Part shown: piece by piece, positions 7,826 to 26,210 of the stretch | How positions within the stretch are numbered: position 1 is the stretch's first letter | How the letters are laid out: each line of letters begins with the position of its first letter | NCBI GenBank assembly: GCA_016930515.1 | Contig: JAFGGO010000015.1 | Coordinates: forward strand, 1 to 37,003 | Length of the DNA stretch: 37,003 nucleotides | Source of the DNA: Promethearchaeota archaeon | Lineage (GTDB): Archaea; Asgardarchaeota; Lokiarchaeia; Sigyniarchaeales; SOKP01 | Direction of reading: 5' to 3' | Made by a program: the position numbers and the translations under genes | The notes under the pieces: model-generated | What the model was told of the DNA's origin: nothing | Database searches by the model: none | The model's input: the letters and a program-made list of their open reading frames with translations, nothing else

Positions 7826-10800
7826 ATGATTGACTCTATTAAAAATTCAAGAGATAAAATAAGAGCTAGCGTGAGCGTAAAATCGCACAACTTCGTGTTT
7901 TTCGTAGCGCTACTTTTGATATTTATAATGGCCCTTATTGTAAGGATCACGCCCATTATAAGGGGAGATGAACTCATTAAAGCATTTGATCCGTGGATTC
8001 AATGGTATAACGCAGAATACATCGACACGCATTCACTGTATGAATATTTCCACTGGCACGACGATAAGAGTTGGTATCCTTATGGTGTTGACAGGAGTTA
8101 TCTTCGACCGGGACTTCCTTTTACTGCGGTTTTCATTCACAAGTTTTTAACTTTCATTGGGCTCCCAATTTCCATGTACGATGTCTGCTATTACTTTCCG
8201 GCGGTTATAGGTGCTGTATCTGTAGTCGTGATGTATTTCTTGGGAAAGGAGATATTGGATAAAAAATGCGGTCTTTTAGCGGCCTTTTTCATGGCGTTCA
8301 GCGTTGGATACATGTCAAGGACCATGGCTGGATTTTTCGATAACGAGACTATCGGCGTTTTCGGCTCGCTAATGGCAATATTGTTCTTTATAAAGGCGTA
8401 TCGCACGGGAAAAATAACTCATTCTATTATTGGAGGCTTGTCATTAGGGTATGTAGCGCTAAGCTGGGGTGGTTATGAGTTTTTAATGTACATTTTTCCT
8501 ATTATCGTTCTTATTTCGGTAATTACGAAAAAATACAACGAAAACATGCTAATTGCTTATGTAGGTGTCCAAGGAATAGGTGCGCTAATTTTCTCGCTTT
8601 GGATTGAATTTAATCCTGGAGATTTATTATCTTCCTTCGAAATTGGTGCCATTTTTGCATCTTGCCTTCTTTTAATTATATTTCACTTGATATATACCAA
8701 ACGAGGTGAATATCCTCGAATATACAGGAATTTGATAAACCTTTTAAAATGGGGGATCCTTCCAATCGCATTAATTGGTGCAGTTATCATTTGGTTTTTT
8801 CCAGATGTTTTCTCTATTGGATTGAGTTCAAGGTTGCAAAGCATTCTTAATCCATTACTCAGAAATAATCTGGCCCTAGTAGCTTCAGTCGCAGAACACA
8901 TTCCAAGTCCTTGGAGTTCATTTTACCACAACACGCTAATCCCTCTATTACTAGTACCCCTCGGGATCTATTTCTGCTTTAAACGAGGAAATGTCAAGGA
9001 TATTGCGCTTATAGTTACTACATTGTTATTATTCTATTTTACAGGAAGCATGGTACGAGTCATTTTACTTTTTGCTCCCATTGCTTCTTTAGCAGGAGCT
9101 TATGGCCTTTCCAGCGTTTTAAACATCCACGGAAGTCTGGTTGGAGAGAAACGAGCTTCTGGAAGGAGTAGAAAAAGACAAAGACAGGCTAAAAACAAAA
9201 TAACAACAGCAGAAGTGTTTGCGGTATATGCCGTTATTGGATTCATTTGTTTTGCCCAAGTAACGCACGCAGTAGATACTTCCGTCGATCAGTTGTCGTA
9301 TGGCTCGATGGTGTTAGGTACGAGCATCCACGATTGGGAAGAGTCATTATCTTGGATGAGAGATAATTTAAATGGCAATGATGTGGTCGTGAGTTGGTGG
9401 GATTATGGATATTGGCTCACCCCTATCGGAAATGTGACTACAGTATGCGATAACGCCAATCTAAAACAAAAACAGGTTGGCATGGTGGGCATGGGAATGA
9501 TGCAAACAGACGAGATCTACGCAGCCAAGGTGTTCCAACGACTTCAAGCTGATTATGTCCTCGTGTATTTTACGTATTTATACGAAGGTTTAGGTGGTGA
9601 CGAAGGAAAGTGGCAGTGGATGCTACGAATATGCAACGATAATTACGAATATTACAAATCGCTCGGAATGGAAGAAGACAATTGGGGTGACGGCGAAGTA
9701 TTCGACGAGAGCGAATACACTACGGAAACAGGTGTGAAAGGAGACAAGTGGTTTGATTGCACGCTTACCAGACTCATGTTTTATGGTGTTCCTACCATCG
9801 ATCCTAGCTCTGAGTACTTTGAATATCAACACCAGCTCGTTCAAATATATAACCAACGCATATATAACTGGGAAGATCAAGACGGAGACACGTGGTTAAC
9901 TCATATTCCCACAAATGGTGCGTACGAATCTAATGTGTTCGTACCCGTTTATTTCGGAGAACAAACGGGGCTTGGCCCTTCTTCATCCAATGGTCTTGTA
10001 AAATTATTTAAAGTCGATTATACAGTTCTTGAGTCGAGTTTCGAAATTCAAGACGCAAAAGTATACAATAGCGGTTATGGAACTTTTAATCTTCAAAATA
10101 CCGGAACAAAGGATCTCACGATAACGGGTGTGTCCGTTAATGGTGTTGACTACAACTTTACTATGGGAAAAGGAAGTCATGCCGAGAATGCCTTGCCGGC
10201 AGGTGCGGACGATACGGTTAAGATTGATTTAGTGAACGACTCGTATCCATTAGACAGTCTCGTAAGTATTGATGTCTCGGCAGAGGCAGAAGGCTTAGCT
10301 CGTCCCTACGAGTTTACAGAACACACTGGAAATTTCTGGGTCACGGAAGCGGAAGAAGGAGATATTAAAATGAACGAACAGAATTGCCGCGTGGTTCAAA
10401 TTACCAACGACTTGGTTGATATATTCTTGGATGTGGAAAATGTTGGATCTAGCACGGTGGCGATTGATAAGATTTACATTGATGAGGAATCCAACAATCT
10501 TATTGAAATGGGCGCCGATATTAGTTATACGAGTGGGTCTTCCATTTTATCTCCTGGACAGAAAGCAATCATACACATATCTGACATAGACTCTTCTGTT
10601 GCGGACTTCGATCCAATTAACGAAAAACAACATGTTATCGGTATTTCAACTTACAACGGCGTACGAGACGAATTATTGCTATCATCGAGTTACGAGGGCC
10701 ATAATTTGACGATATACGATACCGAAAGGATTATTTCGCCCGAAATTTTCCTTGCAACGGATAGCTCTTGCAGGTATCATCTCCCCGTAGATCTGGATGC

Positions 10801-11767
10801 CACTCATGCTATCTCTTACGATAATGGCACAACTCAAGCGTTCTTTAAGGTTAAAAATTACGGCACCGAACCCGTGACGATAGGTCCGGTTTACATAACT
10901 ACATCTGATACTTGGATGCAGGTTAATATTGGCGATTATTCTCGAATATCGGGAGGTACTAGTACGGAGTTGGATATCGGCGAAGAAGGAGTGTTCCTCA
11001 TTAATATAACGGAATCAGAGTACTTCGACATTGATGTGAACGACGAGCTCGGCATGAAAGTCATCGGGACTGGCTCTGGTGGAAGCAGGTTATCGTCTGC
11101 GATTGCTTATGTCCATACGATCTCTGAAGGTGAAAGTTTTAAAATCATAGAGAGCGTGGATAGTAGCATTGCTAGCATAAACAATGTAGCAGCATCGTAT
11201 GTCTTGGCCAACGGTACTGGACGAGTTTTGGTTAAAAATACAGGATCGACAAGTATAGACATTGATGTGGCGAATATCCTAGTTAATGATTCTTCTGTGG
11301 ATTACCAATTCGTGTATGGTGATGCCCACTTAGAGCTACAGGAATGTGCCCTGATTCAACTTGATGTTGCCGATTACTTGGACTCGACTCAAACGCCTTA
11401 TATCGAAGTAAATATCAGTACGACATCGTCACTTTACGATGTAGTTAACTTGCCAGTAAATTACAACATTGAAATCGATGAAACGGCTTCTAATGCCACA
11501 GAAGGCGGAAACTTGAACATTGTCGTGAATAACTACGGGTTATTAAACGCCACCATCAACGCACTTTATGTTAACAATGTTTCCATAGACCTTTCAGAAT
11601 TCTCAGTAGATTTTGAAATCGAGGCGCTTACAGGAAGCCTTTCGCTCACTTTAAGCTGGTCTGATTTGGAAAATTATATCGGAACGGTAAATGTTAACGA
11701 TGAATTAGAAATTCTTATCAGTACCCAAGAAGGAGCGGAAGACGACTATATCATTGTGGTTGATTAG
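7826..11767 (+). CDS. aglB: Oligosaccharyltransferase STT3/AglB with ~580 aa extracellular C-terminal extension
   Basis: Multi-TM N-terminus with FDPW, AGFFDNE, SVAEH; WWDYG motif; DK-type motif DEGKWQWMLRI. Core ends at VKLFKVDY (~aa732) and is followed by acidic beta-rich repeats. Confidence 0.95.
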   Translation: MIDSIKNSRDKIRASVSVKSHNFVFFVALLLIFIMALIVRITPIIRGDELIKAFDPWIQWYNAEYIDTHSLYEYFHWHDDKSWYPYGVDRSYLRPGLPFTAVFIHKFLTFIGLPISMYDVCYYFPAVIGAVSVVVMYFLGKEILDKKCGLLAAFFMAFSVGYMSRTMAGFFDNETIGVFGSLMAILFFIKAYRTGKITHSIIGGLSLGYVALSWGGYEFLMYIFPIIVLISVITKKYNENMLIAYVGVQGIGALIFSLWIEFNPGDLLSSFEIGAIFASCLLLIIFHLIYTKRGEYPRIYRNLINLLKWGILPIALIGAVIIWFFPDVFSIGLSSRLQSILNPLLRNNLALVASVAEHIPSPWSSFYHNTLIPLLLVPLGIYFCFKRGNVKDIALIVTTLLLFYFTGSMVRVILLFAPIASLAGAYGLSSVLNIHGSLVGEKRASGRSRKRQRQAKNKITTAEVFAVYAVIGFICFAQVTHAVDTSVDQLSYGSMVLGTSIHDWEESLSWMRDNLNGNDVVVSWWDYGYWLTPIGNVTTVCDNANLKQKQVGMVGMGMMQTDEIYAAKVFQRLQADYVLVYFTYLYEGLGGDEGKWQWMLRICNDNYEYYKSLGMEEDNWGDGEVFDESEYTTETGVKGDKWFDCTLTRLMFYGVPTIDPSSEYFEYQHQLVQIYNQRIYNWEDQDGDTWLTHIPTNGAYESNVFVPVYFGEQTGLGPSSSNGLVKLFKVDYTVLESSFEIQDAKVYNSGYGTFNLQNTGTKDLTITGVSVNGVDYNFTMGKGSHAENALPAGADDTVKIDLVNDSYPLDSLVSIDVSAEAEGLARPYEFTEHTGNFWVTEAEEGDIKMNEQNCRVVQITNDLVDIFLDVENVGSSTVAIDKIYIDEESNNLIEMGADISYTSGSSILSPGQKAIIHISDIDSSVADFDPINEKQHVIGISTYNGVRDELLLSSSYEGHNLTIYDTERIISPEIFLATDSSCRYHLPVDLDATHAISYDNGTTQAFFKVKNYGTEPVTIGPVYITTSDTWMQVNIGDYSRISGGTSTELDIGEEGVFLINITESEYFDIDVNDELGMKVIGTGSGGSRLSSAIAYVHTISEGESFKIIESVDSSIASINNVAASYVLANGTGRVLVKNTGSTSIDIDVANILVNDSSVDYQFVYGDAHLELQECALIQLDVADYLDSTQTPYIEVNISTTSSLYDVVNLPVNYNIEIDETASNATEGGNLNIVVNNYGLLNATINALYVNNVSIDLSEFSVDFEIEALTGSLSLTLSWSDLENYIGTVNVNDELEILISTQEGAEDDYIIVVD
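10022..11764 (+). repeat. Five protein-level beta-sandwich (Ig/FlaG/CARDB-like) repeats in AglB tail
   Basis: LQNTGTKDLTITGVSVN (aa756), VENVGSSTVAIDKIYID (870), VKNYGTEPVTIGPVYIT (1009), VKNTGSTSIDIDVANILVN (1136), VNNYGLLNATINALYVN (1234); spacing 98-139 aa. Confidence 0.75.
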
Positions 11768-17457: not shown

Positions 17458-19350
17458 GTGAAAATACTTATCTTAAGTCACTTTGACGCTCGAGTAGGGC
17501 CGGTACCCTTTTTATTTGCACCTAAAACTATAGATGAAAAGATCTTGGATCAAATACCAGATCTGATGAATTTATTTGATGAAAATGGATTTTTCGTGCA
17601 TATCGTTGGCGGATTTAAGAGTGCAAATCTCGTCTTTGAAATTCCCAATCCCCACTCTCGTGGAAAAGTGGAGATGCTTTTGATATCAGTGCTAATTACG
17701 GAAGGAGATCTTAATATTGAACTAGCAAAAGAGCTCTTACAACGATTCTCCGTGGAGCTAAACAATATTGATGACGCCTATCAAGCATTTTATCCACAAG
17801 CGACTAAGAATGGAACATTAGAAACAAAACATGAGGAAATAAATTCCCTTTTCAAAGCTTTTTACGATTCATTTCCAGAAGAAAGCTTTATTAAAAGAAG
17901 AAAGGACGCAAAAATATTTGTTTTTGGATTATCGAAAGCTGGTAAAACAACAATTATAAAGACGCTACAGAACTCTGAATTAAGAAATACAATCCCAACA
18001 ACGAGTATTGGTATATCGAGAATTTACCTGAATAATTTATCTATATTAGCATATGACGCCCCTGGGCAATCAAAATTCAGAAATATGTGGACGGATTACT
18101 TGAAAAAGCAAAATGGGCTAGTCTTTGTTCTCGACGCGTCTAGAAAGGAGAAATATTCAAGCGCAAGAGATATATTACACCATATAGCCGGACAAGAAGA
18201 TATGAAAGACTTGCCCTTGCTTTTGCTATATAATAAAGTGGACCTTTATAGCCCTAAGATCGAGGAAATTAACCAACTTTTAGAAATAAACAAGTTAAAT
18301 AGAACCAATCTAAAATCTTTTTTAACAACTGGATTTGATAGCTCTATGATTAATGATGCGTTTAGTTGGTTAAGCCAACAATTGTTATCTCTAGTAGAAC
18401 CAACTGAAAGTGCCGTTTTAAAGGAAAAAATTGGAGAAGGAATAATTTTTTCTATATGGGACGATACTATCGGGCTGGAAGTAATTGGTGTGTATCCAAT
18501 TAACGCTTTCAGTGATCCTGAAGTCTTGGCAATCAATTGTTTTTCAATCTCTCAGACGATTTTTGGAGGAGATAAGTTTAAGAAAATATCTGTTATCTTT
18601 CCCTTCGTTCATTTAAAAGCTAAAATCGCCATATACTTTGATTATGTAGAACACTCTACAGTTCGGGGAGGCAAGTTACCTCTTTCAATGCTAATTTCTT
18701 TTAAAGAAGAAGTTCCAAACGAATTCATCCACCAACTTGATTCCGTTGTTTTTAACGAACTTACTAAAATTAAACCACATTACTCTGAAAAAGAGAAAAT
18801 AAAAAACGATCTAAAAAATGTATTCGAAATGATATCCGAAATCCGAAAATCAGGATTATTTACGCTTGGTGGTGCGAAAAACGTGCCTTTAGATGAAAGG
18901 AGCACAAAATCTACAATTACTACTTTTCAAGAATATTTTGAAGCCTTCGGAAATAAATCAGATCTTTCCTATCTTCGGGAAATTCAACCTTCATATGAAA
19001 ACGAATCCCATTGTTCAATATGTTATGAAGAATTCAAGGAACGGCAAACCATCATTCGTACTGCATCTCATTTAATCAAAGTATGCGATACTTGTCTTCA
19101 CGAGATAACCTTAGCTGATATAAATATGATACACCAAATGTTTTTAGCATACGGGGGGTATTTTGGGATGAAAAAAACTCAAAATGGGAAAGACGAGAAT
19201 ATAATTGCGTTTTTAAGAAACGAAATTAAATCTAAAAAAAATGGGATAGATCCCATCGATAGACATGTTAAGGTTCTGCACGAATCCTTATTGTTGGGTA
19301 TTTATCCAGAGCGATTTAAGAAAGATGTATTACCTTATTTAAGAACCTGA
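17458..19350 (+). CDS. Multidomain Arf-like small GTPase: uDENN/longin - GTPase - uDENN/longin - C4 Zn-binding domain
   Basis: G1 GLSKAGKT, G2 PTT, G3 DAPGQ-FRNMW, G4 NKVD, C-terminal AFSWL. Flanking domains start LSHFDARVGP and IFSIWDDTIGL and each has an RG motif (R68, R403). C-terminal CSIC...CDTC. Confidence 0.85.
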   Translation: MKILILSHFDARVGPVPFLFAPKTIDEKILDQIPDLMNLFDENGFFVHIVGGFKSANLVFEIPNPHSRGKVEMLLISVLITEGDLNIELAKELLQRFSVELNNIDDAYQAFYPQATKNGTLETKHEEINSLFKAFYDSFPEESFIKRRKDAKIFVFGLSKAGKTTIIKTLQNSELRNTIPTTSIGISRIYLNNLSILAYDAPGQSKFRNMWTDYLKKQNGLVFVLDASRKEKYSSARDILHHIAGQEDMKDLPLLLLYNKVDLYSPKIEEINQLLEINKLNRTNLKSFLTTGFDSSMINDAFSWLSQQLLSLVEPTESAVLKEKIGEGIIFSIWDDTIGLEVIGVYPINAFSDPEVLAINCFSISQTIFGGDKFKKISVIFPFVHLKAKIAIYFDYVEHSTVRGGKLPLSMLISFKEEVPNEFIHQLDSVVFNELTKIKPHYSEKEKIKNDLKNVFEMISEIRKSGLFTLGGAKNVPLDERSTKSTITTFQEYFEAFGNKSDLSYLREIQPSYENESHCSICYEEFKERQTIIRTASHLIKVCDTCLHEITLADINMIHQMFLAYGGYFGMKKTQNGKDENIIAFLRNEIKSKKNGIDPIDRHVKVLHESLLLGIYPERFKKDVLPYLRT

Positions 19351-19363
19351 TAATTAAGAGCTG

Positions 19364-20626
19364 GTGTTCGTGTCTTTAAAAAATCAAAACGATGCTGCAA
19401 TGATTATGGAATTATTTAATGATATCATGTGTTTAAATCAAGTTTTCCTTATCAATAAAAATTCGGGGATTTGTGCCTATTTCTGGAGTAATAATAATTA
19501 TCACCAGAATTTAAAAAATCTTGATGATATTTTAAGCACAATATTTGAATTTGGAACTAGGATTAACGCACAAGCAACCATTAATAATATAAAATGCGGA
19601 AGTTATTATCATATTGCCATTGCAGATGGTCACTATTTTCGCATCGCTGTTGTACAATCGAAAAAACCTTCATTGCTGTTTCGATTTAAAATCCAAAGAC
19701 TTCTCAAATCAATTGAAGCCGAATTAAAAGGTTCAAAAAAAGAGGTTTCTCTCAACATTGAAAGTTTTAATAAAATTGAATCCATTATTCAAGACGAGCT
19801 CTATTTATCATTACTTCTTGCTTACAAAATCAACTACGATTATGAAAACTCGGATAAACTCCTCGAACATGATACTACTGATGTGCTCAAGATCGCGAAT
19901 ATTCTTATCCAAGAATATAAATCCCCCTTTTTTTTCATCCCAATTCTTGTACGAGAAATCTCTGAAAAGATGGATATAACATTCGAACAGATTCTCCATT
20001 CAGTTGTAGATCTTCAAAAGTTGAATATTATCGAACCTATCAAAATCCAGCAAACTTATGTTTCTCCATCAAAAAAACAATTTGAACTCATTGAGCGATC
20101 AGCCGATTATATTAATCCCAAAAAACTTGTAGCTTTTATTGAAACTCGAACTCCGATTGAAAGAGAAATTTTTTTTTTCACTCTTGTTCGAAGAAAAAAA
20201 ATCGTTTCTCCTCCAATTAAAGTAGAGGATGTAGCAATTAGAATAGAAAGCGTGAAATCTGCAAGAAAAAATCTTGAAGATTTAAAAAAAAAGGTAAAAT
20301 CAGCACTAAAAAAGAAAGATTTTGAAATTATAAAAATCTTATATAGAGAAGCGATCAGAATAGCGTGTTATTGGAATTTAGCAGAAAATCTCAAGTTTTT
20401 TATAAATGTACGACGATTGGTAAAGATAGAAGAGAATAAAAAAAAATTAGAACAATTTAAAGCAAGAGCTGAAAATGCCCAGAATGCTGGTCACGCAAAT
20501 CAAGCGTCTCATTATTTTTCCTTGGCAAGTGAAGTAGCATATTTACTTTATCATTTAGGTGATATAGAAATATATGACGATTTATGCGTTCTTGCAAAGC
20601 AAAAAAACCAGATTATAAAATTATGA
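19364..20626 (+). CDS. Hypothetical protein: longin-like domain + winged-helix-like region + helical (TPR-like) C-terminus
   Basis: LNQVFLINKNSGICAY longin-type start; ILVREISEKMDITFEQILHSVVDLQKLNIIEP wHTH-like; Ala-patterned helices at the C-terminus. Begins 13 nt after the upstream stop. GTG 19364; alternative ATG 19400. Confidence 0.7.
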   Translation: MFVSLKNQNDAAMIMELFNDIMCLNQVFLINKNSGICAYFWSNNNYHQNLKNLDDILSTIFEFGTRINAQATINNIKCGSYYHIAIADGHYFRIAVVQSKKPSLLFRFKIQRLLKSIEAELKGSKKEVSLNIESFNKIESIIQDELYLSLLLAYKINYDYENSDKLLEHDTTDVLKIANILIQEYKSPFFFIPILVREISEKMDITFEQILHSVVDLQKLNIIEPIKIQQTYVSPSKKQFELIERSADYINPKKLVAFIETRTPIEREIFFFTLVRRKKIVSPPIKVEDVAIRIESVKSARKNLEDLKKKVKSALKKKDFEIIKILYREAIRIACYWNLAENLKFFINVRRLVKIEENKKKLEQFKARAENAQNAGHANQASHYFSLASEVAYLLYHLGDIEIYDDLCVLAKQKNQIIKL

Positions 20627-24869: not shown

Positions 24870-26210
24870 ATGACAAGAAAAGTTGATTACAAACAAAAAA
24901 TCTATCAATGCATTCTCAATAATGGTTATGGATTGACGGTAACAGATATAGCTAACGAAATTAACTTTAGTAGGAATACTGTTTATAAGTACTTGGAGAT
25001 CCTCGAAAACGAAGAGCTCATTTATAAAAAAAAGATAGGAATGTATACGCTATACTTTTCTCAAGAAGAAAACATCTTAAACAAGGACTTGATAATCTCC
25101 TTTTTAAAAGGGCTCCTACTCAATTTGAAAAGCGCTTTTCCCGATAAAGGTGCAATGTTTCAAGAATTTGGGAGAAACATGGCAAAAACAATGAATATCA
25201 GCTTTTCTGAAAATGATTTAAAGTATTTCAAAAAGCTCATGTACGAATCCGATGAGAAAATCTTGGAATCTATTGGCAACTATCTTCCGTACTTTAACCT
25301 CATTCACGATAGCGTCGCCGTTTCAGAAATTACAATCGATAAAAAGAATAAAAAAGCCTCGATAACTTTCGTCAATTCAGACATGTTAGATCTTACGGAC
25401 GATTACATCTATTATTTTTACCTCATCGTGGGTTTGATGGAAGAGACATTGTCTGAACATATTGGAAGGGATATTAAATTCGATGTGCTTGAATACGAGA
25501 CCTTTGATGTAAAAAAAAATAGTTTCGTCAAGATTTCTGTAGGCATCCAAGTTATGCTTCCTGACATCGAGATGAAAGAATACGATGAAATTATTCCTAA
25601 AAATAGCGAAATCCCAGATATTGAAAATTTGAAAATGATACTTAATCCTCAAACTCTCTCATATATAGTTCACGCGTGCGTTCTCGGTCAAAATCTGCTA
25701 ATTATTAGCGAAAATGATGAAGTTAAAGCACTACTCATTAATTTTGTAAGGACAATATATAGCGAACTCTTTGATATCAACTTTTCCGTTGAAAATAATG
25801 GATTTTATCAGAAAAACAAGACACTTTATAAGGATTACATCGTAATAGGGGGATTAGAAATAATTTACGACAAAAAAAACTTACTTAATAAACGAAAAAT
25901 TAAAATTGAAAGCGTTATAGTCCAGCAGTTTTTCAACGAGCCCTCCCCTGATAAAAGCTTTTTCTCTCTTAGGCGAGAAATGCAAAAGGCTTACATGCTT
26001 TCTAAGGAATTATCGGATATCATTTCTGATTTTTTTAAGCAAAACAAGGAATCCAAGGAAATAGATTCGAAAATGATAACGGATGCCTTGGAGAAAAAAT
26101 ATAACACGAGTTTAACCACATCTTATTTAACTTTTTTAGTCGATATCATGGAAAATTATTTTGGTGTGAGTGTTCCAAAAGTCTGGAAGTTTTTCTTGTT
26201 CCAACTTTAA
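24870..26210 (+). CDS. Winged-HTH transcription regulator + V4R/H-NOX-like domain + DENN-like C-terminal module
   Basis: GLTVTDIANEINFSRNTVYKYLEILE...KKKIG wHTH (aa1-65); FQEFGRNMA...YLIVGLMEETL...FDVLE V4R-like (aa70-227); LSYIVHACVLGQNLLIIS DENN-core-like (aa250-446). Confidence 0.75.
   Translation: MTRKVDYKQKIYQCILNNGYGLTVTDIANEINFSRNTVYKYLEILENEELIYKKKIGMYTLYFSQEENILNKDLIISFLKGLLLNLKSAFPDKGAMFQEFGRNMAKTMNISFSENDLKYFKKLMYESDEKILESIGNYLPYFNLIHDSVAVSEITIDKKNKKASITFVNSDMLDLTDDYIYYFYLIVGLMEETLSEHIGRDIKFDVLEYETFDVKKNSFVKISVGIQVMLPDIEMKEYDEIIPKNSEIPDIENLKMILNPQTLSYIVHACVLGQNLLIISENDEVKALLINFVRTIYSELFDINFSVENNGFYQKNKTLYKDYIVIGGLEIIYDKKNLLNKRKIKIESVIVQQFFNEPSPDKSFFSLRREMQKAYMLSKELSDIISDFFKQNKESKEIDSKMITDALEKKYNTSLTTSYLTFLVDIMENYFGVSVPKVWKFFLFQL

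Follow-up and report, generated by a model that had tools for sequence, protein, structure and literature searches.

An Arf-family GTPase between two longin domains in an Asgard archaeon: a candidate single-chain GTPase and longin GAP module

How is the nucleotide cycle of an Arf-family G domain controlled when the domain is built into one chain between two longins, each with an arginine in the β4–β5 loop, the proposed position of the finger of eukaryotic longin GTPase-activating proteins (GAPs)? This question is raised by a gene at positions 17458–19350 of a 37,003-nucleotide stretch of Promethearchaeota archaeon DNA (GenBank assembly GCA_016930515.1, contig JAFGGO010000015.1, positions 1–37,003 of the forward strand; the whole stretch is called the window below). 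The open reading frame (ORF) contains four parts: an N-terminal longin (D1), an Arf-family G domain, a second longin (D3) and a helical tail with four cysteines (Cys4). We give about even chances to the reading that the protein is a self-contained GTPase with its own longin GAP, feeding outputs that vary among relatives: the Cys4 tail here and a PAS-histidine kinase in paralogues. All the peptide strings quoted in an initial annotation, made from the sequence alone, are present in the translation of positions 17458–19347, among them ILILSHFDARVGP (with Gly14-Pro15), SRGK (Arg68, nucleotides 17659–17661), IWDDTIG (residues 333–339) and VRGGK (Arg403, nucleotides 18664–18666). The gene had been ended at position 18870, which is wrong; the ORF runs to 19350, and its final 160 residues make up another domain, the one with the Cys4.

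The gene is genuine, given its homologues. There are 51 of these at E ≤ 1e-3, the nearest full-length one sharing 74% identity, and full-length orthologues are 623–641 amino acids long with identities of 43–74%. All homologues that bear names are from Asgard archaea (Promethearchaeota/Lokiarchaeota, Thor-, Hermod-, Hod-, Heimdall- and Sigynarchaeota), and orthologues of 632 amino acids are named 'ADP-ribosylation factor-like protein [Promethearchaeota archaeon]' at NCBI.

The G domain had been called Arf-like from its hallmark motifs, and this identification is borne out. The Pfam Arf model (PF00025) matches residues 145–308 with E 2.7e-34 and 118.6 bits (cut-off 22.3), making it the best of the Ras-superfamily models, far above Ras (E 3.3e-10), Roc and Gtr1_RagA (E 6.4e-7). 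Motifs G1 to G5 are whole, including the Thr290 region (G5) and the switch II glutamine Gln204; GLSKAGKT occupies residues 157–164, DAPGQ 200–204, FRNMW 207–211, NKVD 259–262 and AFSWL 301–305. In the AlphaFold2 (AF2) model of the full-length protein, structural alignment with VIA matches the domain to Arf6 (Z 21.2, root mean square deviation 2.7, 163 residues aligned), Arl13B (Z 20.7) and Sar1 (Z 19.4), and Arf1 is also matched; the scores are 18.7 against the solved Asgard HodArfR1 and 17.4 against LokiRagO. An N-terminal amphipathic helix for membrane binding is absent. Because a folded longin precedes the G domain, filling the 142 residues upstream of it, the protein is not a classical membrane-anchored Arf, although its G domain is of the Arf type.

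Pfam and NCBIfam give no match on residues 1–144 and 320–470, which contain the two flanking domains. Their predicted topology and fold searches identify both as longins, as had been proposed. Folded alone with AF2 from an alignment with 49 homologues, D1 has a predicted local distance difference test score (pLDDT) of 88.2 and a predicted template modelling score (pTM) of 0.85, and its secondary structure elements follow the longin order β-β-α-β-β-β-α-α. GATOR1 and FLCN chains head the Foldseek matches (E 1.6e-5 to 3e-4), in keeping with the likeness to FLCN suspected from the sequence. VIA-align places FLCN first (8dhb_J, Z 13.2, root mean square deviation 2.6, 130 residues aligned), followed by a Lokiarchaeota longin (8yqg_A) and two other FLCN entries, all with Z 12.4, and by GATOR1 chains with Z 10.8–11.9; the eight best structural neighbours (Z 10.8–13.2) are all FLCN, this Lokiarchaeota longin or NPRL2/NPRL3 chains. 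Generic longins, such as those of sigma-adaptins, Ykt6, Sec22b, TRAPP, Mon1-Ccz1 and DENND1, mostly score about 9–10.7. Pro15 of the GP motif of D1 is present in 49 of 49 species representatives and Gly14 in 11 of the 49, while the complete motif is found in 57 of 105 sequences of a wider set. The label 'uDENN-type' that these domains had been given is loose, because no DENN module is present; no DENN-family Pfam model matches the protein at E ≤ 1, and the longins are followed by the G domain and the Cys4/helical tail.

For D3, the fold match was taken from the full-length model, in which the region has a pLDDT of about 80; fold searches with the full-length model were dominated by GTPase matches. 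The domain is made up of strands 328–335, 339–346, 377–383, 388–398 and 406–416 and helices 354–369, 421–441 and 445–465, as assigned by DSSP. Residues 326–467 superimpose onto 8yqg_B, deposited as 'Longin domain from a Lokiarchaeota Roadblock-Longin protein', with Z 15.7 and a root mean square deviation of 2.5 over 134 aligned residues. This is the nearest solved structure to D3, although it comes from a protein of different architecture (Roadblock-Longin) and the identity is only 15–16%. A Roadblock/LC7 fold, which is how the C-terminal domain of fusions of this kind has been read in print, was considered for D3 and rejected: two strands come first and two helices last, as against the α-β-β-α-β-β-β order with its N-terminal helix, and the Pfam Robl_LC7 model has no match in the window protein. 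The topology and the deposition of the best match as a longin make D3 a longin and not a roadblock domain. Its motifs are strongly conserved among the 51 species representatives, with Trp334 present in 50, Asp335 in 49 and Gly339 in all 51 for the hairpin, and Arg403 in 50, Gly404 in 51 and Gly405 in 50 for the loop. The Arg-Gly pair had been expected to be conserved in Asgard homologues; this is true of Arg403, which is near invariant, while Arg68 is retained unevenly, mainly together with Gln204.

D1 and D3 are paralogous, both longins and copies of one family. Comparison of narrow alignments is not significant (hhalign Prob 0.4–1.5%), but when the alignments also take in D1-like domains encoded by the same genome, together with 120 remote D3-like domains, hhalign relates the two over 75 columns (Prob 79%, P 1.6e-5). 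The register sets Phe9-Asp10...Gly14-Pro15 on Trp334-Asp335...Gly339 and Arg68-Gly69 on Arg403-Gly404, so that the two copies of one fold perceived in the initial annotation are found with their arginines aligned. Both arginines are located in the β4–β5 loop of the AF2 models, Arg68 in loop 64–70 and Arg403 in loop 398–406. In the ESM-atlas, a protein-language-model atlas, D1 and D3 are both nearest to the same small Asgard clusters; in one neighbouring cluster, 19% of the members contain Pfam NPR2, which is a lead only.

The D3 type of longin forms a wider family. Against 1.84 billion representatives, the D3 profile finds 157 proteins at E ≤ 1e-3, and the members with names are from Asgard archaea. 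Outside the longin-G-longin arrangement, these domains occur as standalone proteins (about 140–180 amino acids), as the N-terminal domain of TPR proteins, behind REC, in a REC-Arf-longin order and with a zinc ribbon. In 120 remote relatives of D3, the hairpin consists of Trp (113), Asp (104), Glu and two variable residues, Gly (117) and Pro (95), and the loop of Val, Arg (106), Gly (101) and Gly (90). The three elements of the resulting consensus, WDExxGP...VRGG, are combined in 82 of the 120; the D3 of the window protein has Leu340 at the place of the Pro.

Several relatives with other architectures were noted. D3-type longins with WDExxGP...VRGG form the N-terminal part of Promethearchaeota TPR-repeat proteins that are about 680–720 amino acids long (P0086, P0089, P0092; about 15 of 73 scanned). 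Asgard REC-longin response regulators of about 290–425 amino acids have a D3-type output (P0090, P0129, P0152, P0154, P0175, P0179, P0187, P0193, P0196), and P0102 of Heimdallarchaeota LC_3 is REC-Arf-longin. Five additional longins of the D1 type, each with GP and ARG, are encoded on contigs C83, C100, C48, C101 (36963) and C180 (L056–L059, L053) of the genome that contains the window: one is a standalone protein of 156 amino acids, two have unassigned C-terminal parts (296 and 446 amino acids) and two are joined to P-loop/Arf-like G domains (344 and 490 amino acids).

Two longins and an Arf-family GTPase are also the components of the C9orf72-SMCR8(-WDR41) ARF GAP (PDB 7MGE; PMC8213707). There, ARF1 sits atop the two longins, with SMCR8 Arg147 aimed at BeF3 and C9orf72 Trp33 and Asp34 at the interface; the C9orf72 mutation W33G/D34K leaves GAP activity nearly gone, and an engineered ARF1-SMCR8 fusion was purified in the GDP-bound form only, meaning that it is active in cis (PMC8213707). 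SMCR8 combines a GP motif with the loop arginine Arg147, as D1 combines Gly14-Pro15 with Arg68. The Trp33-Asp34/Gly38-Pro39 hairpin of C9orf72 has its counterpart in Trp334-Asp335/Gly339 of D3, with the same spacing and Leu for Pro, a motif match that does not imply homology. Section 2.4 of PMC12290439 describes the C9orf72 hairpin residues and SMCR8 Arg147 as essential, near-universal motifs of the CSW Arf GAP, and the GP motif as restricted to GAP-type longins, being missing from GEF-type (guanine nucleotide exchange factor) and other non-GAP longins; this paper, PMC10933270, PMC11914678 and 10.1101/2020.10.19.343400 are drawn on here in part, and what we take from them applies to those parts. 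Unlike the window protein, which is a single chain with no DENN module and with an arginine kept in both longins, C9orf72-SMCR8 is a heterodimer of separate longin-DENN proteins acting on a free Arf. D1 aligns with 7o2w_A at Z 9.3 only, and a sequence-profile link to C9orf72-SMCR8 was not found. FLCN-FNIP2 and GATOR1 (NPRL2-NPRL3) provide the best structural matches of D1, which has a GP motif and a loop arginine, but these are large multi-subunit lysosomal complexes with Rag substrates in trans.

Rag/Gtr GTPases and MglA-MglB resemble the window protein in that a small GTPase is joined to, or regulated by, a platform of the roadblock/longin superfamily. They differ in that the window G domain scores far better as an Arf and its flanks have the longin topology, not that of roadblock. 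Neither MglB nor the Rag roadblock domains are known to supply an arginine finger. The two longins of the window protein could likewise form a dimerisation, scaffold or GEF-type platform, comparable to the Rag C-terminal roadblock domains, Mon1-Ccz1, TRAPP or DENN, with arginines that are structural or involved in binding. We consider this unlikely, even if longin and roadblock platforms are mostly GEFs or scaffolds (PMC10933270) and the solved longin 8yqg is a dimer according to its depositors. GEF-type longins come only 2–3 Z below FLCN when aligned with D1 (Fuzzy/CPLANE 9.9–10.4, Mon1-Ccz1 9.5, DENND1 9.3–9.6), but all eight of the best neighbours belong to GAP complexes or are the Lokiarchaeota longin, and the window protein has in D1 the GP motif that is reportedly missing from non-GAP longins (PMC12290439).

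Both arginines are also associated in evolution with the glutamine of the fused G domain. Of the 51 species representatives, 28 have Lys in place of Gln204, and Arg68 is found in 24 of 49. In 105 unique sequences, Arg68 is present in 65 of 65 with Gln204, versus 6 of 34 with Lys204. When rates are compared on a tree built without the columns under study, Arg68 does not change at all over the 66 Gln-bearing sequences (tree length 24.7; an average site has 13.7 changes), while it changes 15 times over the 34 Lys204 sequences (tree length 6.1; average site 3.6). Of the 27 sites invariant in Gln-bearing sequences, it is the most changed in the Lys204 clade. The next most relaxed are Asp262 (G4), Thr290 (G5), Arg403, Pro140, Pro180/Thr181 (switch I) and Gly404; the sites that relax with Arg68 are therefore mostly nucleotide-pocket residues and the D3 loop. 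In divergent lineages that have lost the glutamine or have a degenerate G domain (P0052, P0070, P0073, P0114, P0184), Arg68 is kept and Arg403, usually with the WD pair, is lost. The idea that Arg68 alone tracks Gln204 was dropped, as these lineages show the reverse. When the two arginines are considered together in 106 longin-G-longin sequences, both are kept in 65 of 66 with Gln204 versus 5 of 40 without. Gln204 was lost independently only five or six times; about four of these contrasts go the same way, none goes the opposite way and about one shows no difference. The coupling is suggestive but, because independent events are few, not significant. The sequence comparisons thus suggest, without proving, that both loop arginines are coupled to catalysis by the fused G domain. 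Loss of one arginine together with the catalytic glutamine is also not predicted by the purely structural role that a scaffold or GEF platform would assign to these residues.

The large clade with Lys204, a subfamily of about 1100 amino acids (L008, L011–L017, L019, L020 and others), has the switch II sequence DIPGKYK, with Lys for the catalytic Gln. In its D1, Pro-Pro replaces Gly-Pro and position 68 is hypervariable; the P-loop and NKxD, like the D3 motifs, are for the most part intact. The clade may be a GTP-binding branch with altered hydrolysis.

The association with Gln204 also bears on where the longins would act. They might form a GAP for another, free-standing small GTPase, of the ArfR or Rag-like kind, leaving the fused G domain a regulatory or targeting role, as one Rag regulates the other. 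The eukaryotic longin GAPs all work in trans, Asgard genomes are rich in small GTPases (PMC10933270), and the same genome contains the other GP/ARG longins of the D1 type, standalone or in other architectures, described above. It is, however, the fused G domain's own Gln204 that the arginines follow; only about 10 and 15 residues link the longins to this domain, and a partner GTPase gene is not adjacent, the neighbours being UvrA, an orphan ORF and aIF5B. Taken together, these points make action on a separate GTPase quite unlikely in our estimation.

Several results weigh against a built-in longin GAP. The VRGG motif is as well kept in D3-type longins without a fused GTPase, for example those on TPR or REC proteins, and because of this equal conservation its arginine may be general or structural. 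This retention favours a scaffold or GEF platform, and the independence of Arg403 and VRGG from fusion to a G domain would also suit a GAP acting in trans. The arginine that is lost differs by lineage, being Arg68 in the Lys204 clade and in P0058 and Arg403 in the divergent lineages, so that the losses do not single out one catalytic arginine. A sign test on the independent contrasts is non-significant (median p 0.125), and the full-length AF2 model has a pTM of just 0.38. Searches of PDB sequences with the D1, D3 and wider D3-type profiles yield chance matches only and do not reach FLCN, NPRL2, SMCR8, C9orf72 or 8yqg. Pfam Folliculin (PF11704), NPR2 (PF06218) and C9orf72-like models have no match in the window protein at E ≤ 1. 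Pfam scans of 24 and 73 relatives show no recurrent Folliculin or NPR2 match, the sole Folliculin matches being two below threshold (P0081, E 0.17; P0175, E 0.0032). Finally, Arg68 and Arg403 are set beside FLCN Arg164, NPRL2 Arg78 and SMCR8 Arg147 by their placement in the β4–β5 loop, the fold searches having given ranges and not residue pairs.

Even with these points, the window protein may work like a longin GAP module. Because no link emerged from the profile searches, we do not file it as a member of the FLCN, NPRL2, SMCR8, C9orf72 or DENN families. In the mechanism that we propose, the two longins would pair into a platform cupping the fused G domain, within one chain or between the two chains of a homodimer. 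This arrangement would bring a β4–β5 loop arginine up to Gln204 of switch II, leading to faster GTP hydrolysis, with Arg68 of D1 as the putative finger and Arg403 of D3 as a second finger or a stabiliser. The Trp334-Asp335 hairpin of D3 might hold the G domain in the way that C9orf72 Trp33 and Asp34 hold ARF1. It would fall to the C-terminal part, the Cys4/helical domain here and the PAS-GAF-histidine kinase part in paralogues, to read out the nucleotide state. Access of the finger would be expected to be regulated, by output or sensor domains or by partners, because a constitutive GAP in cis would make a timer and not a switch.

The C-terminal parts that follow the longin-Arf-longin core vary widely: none in proteins of about 480 amino acids, a Cys4 tail in those of 623–641, and PAS/GAF/HATPase_c arrays in proteins of up to 2317. 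In the window protein, the four cysteines are arranged as Cys519-x2-Cys522 and Cys543-x2-Cys546 (nucleotides 19012–19095), and the alignment shows that all four are kept in the orthologues of 623–641 amino acids. AF2 confidence over this domain is low in the full-length model. Matches of the domain are weak only, to Atg17 and a TRIM RING (the latter with E 0.65–1.6). An assignment as RING was rejected, as there are four Cys only and not eight ligands, and the highest-scoring RING model reaches 14.8 bits (E 0.028), below its cut-off of 27.9.

In the same genome, a paralogue on contig C101 (L051/L054) is longin-G-longin-PAS, with an open frame of 994 amino acids and two PAS domains. Elsewhere, P0059 (2317 amino acids) and P0061 (1772 amino acids) are large sensor proteins in which the longin-Arf-longin core precedes as many as seven PAS stretches, GAF and HATPase_c. 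Since there are REC-longin proteins as well as longin-G-longin-PAS-histidine kinases, GAP-type longins stand on both sides of two-component signalling. The position of the module N-terminal to PAS, GAF or histidine kinase parts in most relatives, and the use of D3-type longins as output domains of REC response regulators, would also fit longins that are sensors, or ligand- or protein-binding modules, gating the C-terminal output, while the G domain cycles intrinsically or by dimerisation (GAD-type) with no longin finger. This would leave the GAP-type motifs and their association with Gln204 unexplained, and we think it very improbable.

A bolder proposal extends the self-contained GAP reading. 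The SMCR8-C9orf72-Arf GAP complex might have a natural counterpart, in one chain, in the window protein, and the Asgard WDExxGP...VRGG longins a symmetric ancestral form in which each protomer has the WD hairpin, GP and finger. The eukaryotic heterodimers SMCR8/C9orf72, FLCN/FNIP and NPRL2/NPRL3 would have arisen from it by splitting these roles over two subunits, and the Asgard module would wire small-GTPase cycles into two-component signalling, with longin-G-longin placed before PAS-histidine kinases and REC before longins. We offer this tentatively and rate it, in its entirety, as rather unlikely.

Parts of this picture were already known. According to Liu et al. (10.1101/2020.10.19.343400), NPRL2-like longins are abundant in Asgard archaea and occur fused to two-component domains; fusions of longins with GTPases are described there too. 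Tran et al. described longin-G, G-RB and longin-G-RB architectures in MK-D1 with AF2 models (PMC10933270), and a 2025 paper in Traffic identified the GP motif, together with the arginine finger, in Asgard longins of the FLCN/SMCR8 type and posed ArfR or Rag as possible partners (PMC12290439). Zhu et al. found longin N-termini on Asgard Arfs and no convincing native Arf GAP, stating that regulators 'remain to be established' (PMC11914678). The initial annotation, which knew of no description of this catalytic arrangement, overstated its novelty, because NPRL2-like longin fusions, longin-GTPase-'roadblock' architectures and the GP motif with arginine finger in Asgard longins had been published. 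The published fusions come from the same lineage and are of the same architecture type, but paralogous GAP-type flanks, the WDExxGP...VRGG consensus and the coupling of arginines to glutamine are not stated in the parts of the four reports that we draw on. Within that literature, three points appear to be new: that both flanks are paralogous GAP-type longins, that the D3-type family joins a WD/GP hairpin of the C9orf72 kind to a loop arginine at the proposed finger position, and that the arginines follow the catalytic glutamine of the fused G domain.

That an ArfR-type G domain is fused between two GAP-type longins bears on the native regulators of Asgard Arfs (PMC11914678) and on the ArfR/Rag partner question (PMC12290439). 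Together with the arginines that follow the catalytic glutamine, it would provide a Rosetta-stone answer, open to testing on a single soluble polypeptide. If it is true, longin-GAP chemistry on Arf-family GTPases would be older than eukaryotes, and its first role would have lain in histidine kinase and response regulator signalling of the prokaryotic style, not in control of the lysosome or of membrane traffic; should the reading fail, the conserved arginines of Asgard longins will require another explanation. The positions of the gene and of the features discussed are collected in Table 1.

Table 1. Positions in the window of the longin-Arf-longin gene, its domains and its principal motifs.
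Feature	Positions	Strand	Basis and remarks
Whole gene, longin-Arf-longin-Cys4 protein, 630 aa	17458..19350	+	GTG start, stop included; ORF list and translation
D1, N-terminal longin, aa 1-142, FLCN/NPRL2-like	17458..17883	+	domain-only AF2 model and fold searches
G14-P15, GP motif, start of strand β2 of D1	17497..17502	+	DSSP strands 2-10 and 14-21
R68-G69, candidate arginine finger, β4-β5 loop of D1	17659..17664	+	loop 64-70 between strands 53-63 and 71-80
Arf-family G domain, aa 145-312	17890..18393	+	G1 GLSKAGKT, switch I T181, G3 DAPGQ, G4 NKVD
Q204, switch II catalytic glutamine	18067..18069	+	translation; Q in 66, K in 34 of 105 family members
D3, C-terminal longin, aa 326-467	18433..18858	+	full-length AF2 model and VIA match to 8yqg_B
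W334-D335-x3-G339 hairpin motif of D3	18457..18474	+	family consensus WDExxGP
R403-G404-G405, second candidate arginine finger, β4-β5 loop of D3	18664..18672	+	conservation; hhalign to R68-G69
C-terminal domain, aa 470-630, Cys4 and helical region	18865..19347	+	PAS/GAF/HATPase_c instead in paralogues

The surroundings of the gene are housekeeping. AglB/STT3, UvrB and UvrA are encoded upstream; downstream, the order is an orphan ORF of 420 amino acids, aIF5B, a GH3 enzyme, a winged helix-turn-helix protein, the CCA-adding enzyme and aEF2. The orphan ORF (19364–20626, forward strand), which begins 14 nucleotides past the longin-Arf-longin gene, may belong to one operon with that gene. Pfam gives no match for it, its single homologue among 5.8 billion proteins shares 56% identity, and hhalign detects no similarity to the D1 and D3 families (P 0.13 or worse).

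Another Arf-family fusion, of 465 amino acids, is encoded at positions 255–1652 of the forward strand. Its Pfam Arf match (E 2.5e-19) covers residues 125–259, between an N-terminal domain of about 120 amino acids and a C-terminal region of about 200 amino acids without a Pfam match. The GP and RG motifs are absent from the N-terminal domain, and its profile similarity to D1 and D3 in hhalign is not significant (P 0.015 and 0.17). Positions 24870–26210 of the forward strand encode a protein of 446 amino acids with an N-terminal winged helix (TrmB/HTH_11, E about 1e-6), followed by about 380 amino acids without a Pfam match. The STT3/AglB oligosaccharyltransferase at positions 7826–11767 of the forward strand is unusually long (1313 amino acids), with UvrB and UvrA directly downstream of it.

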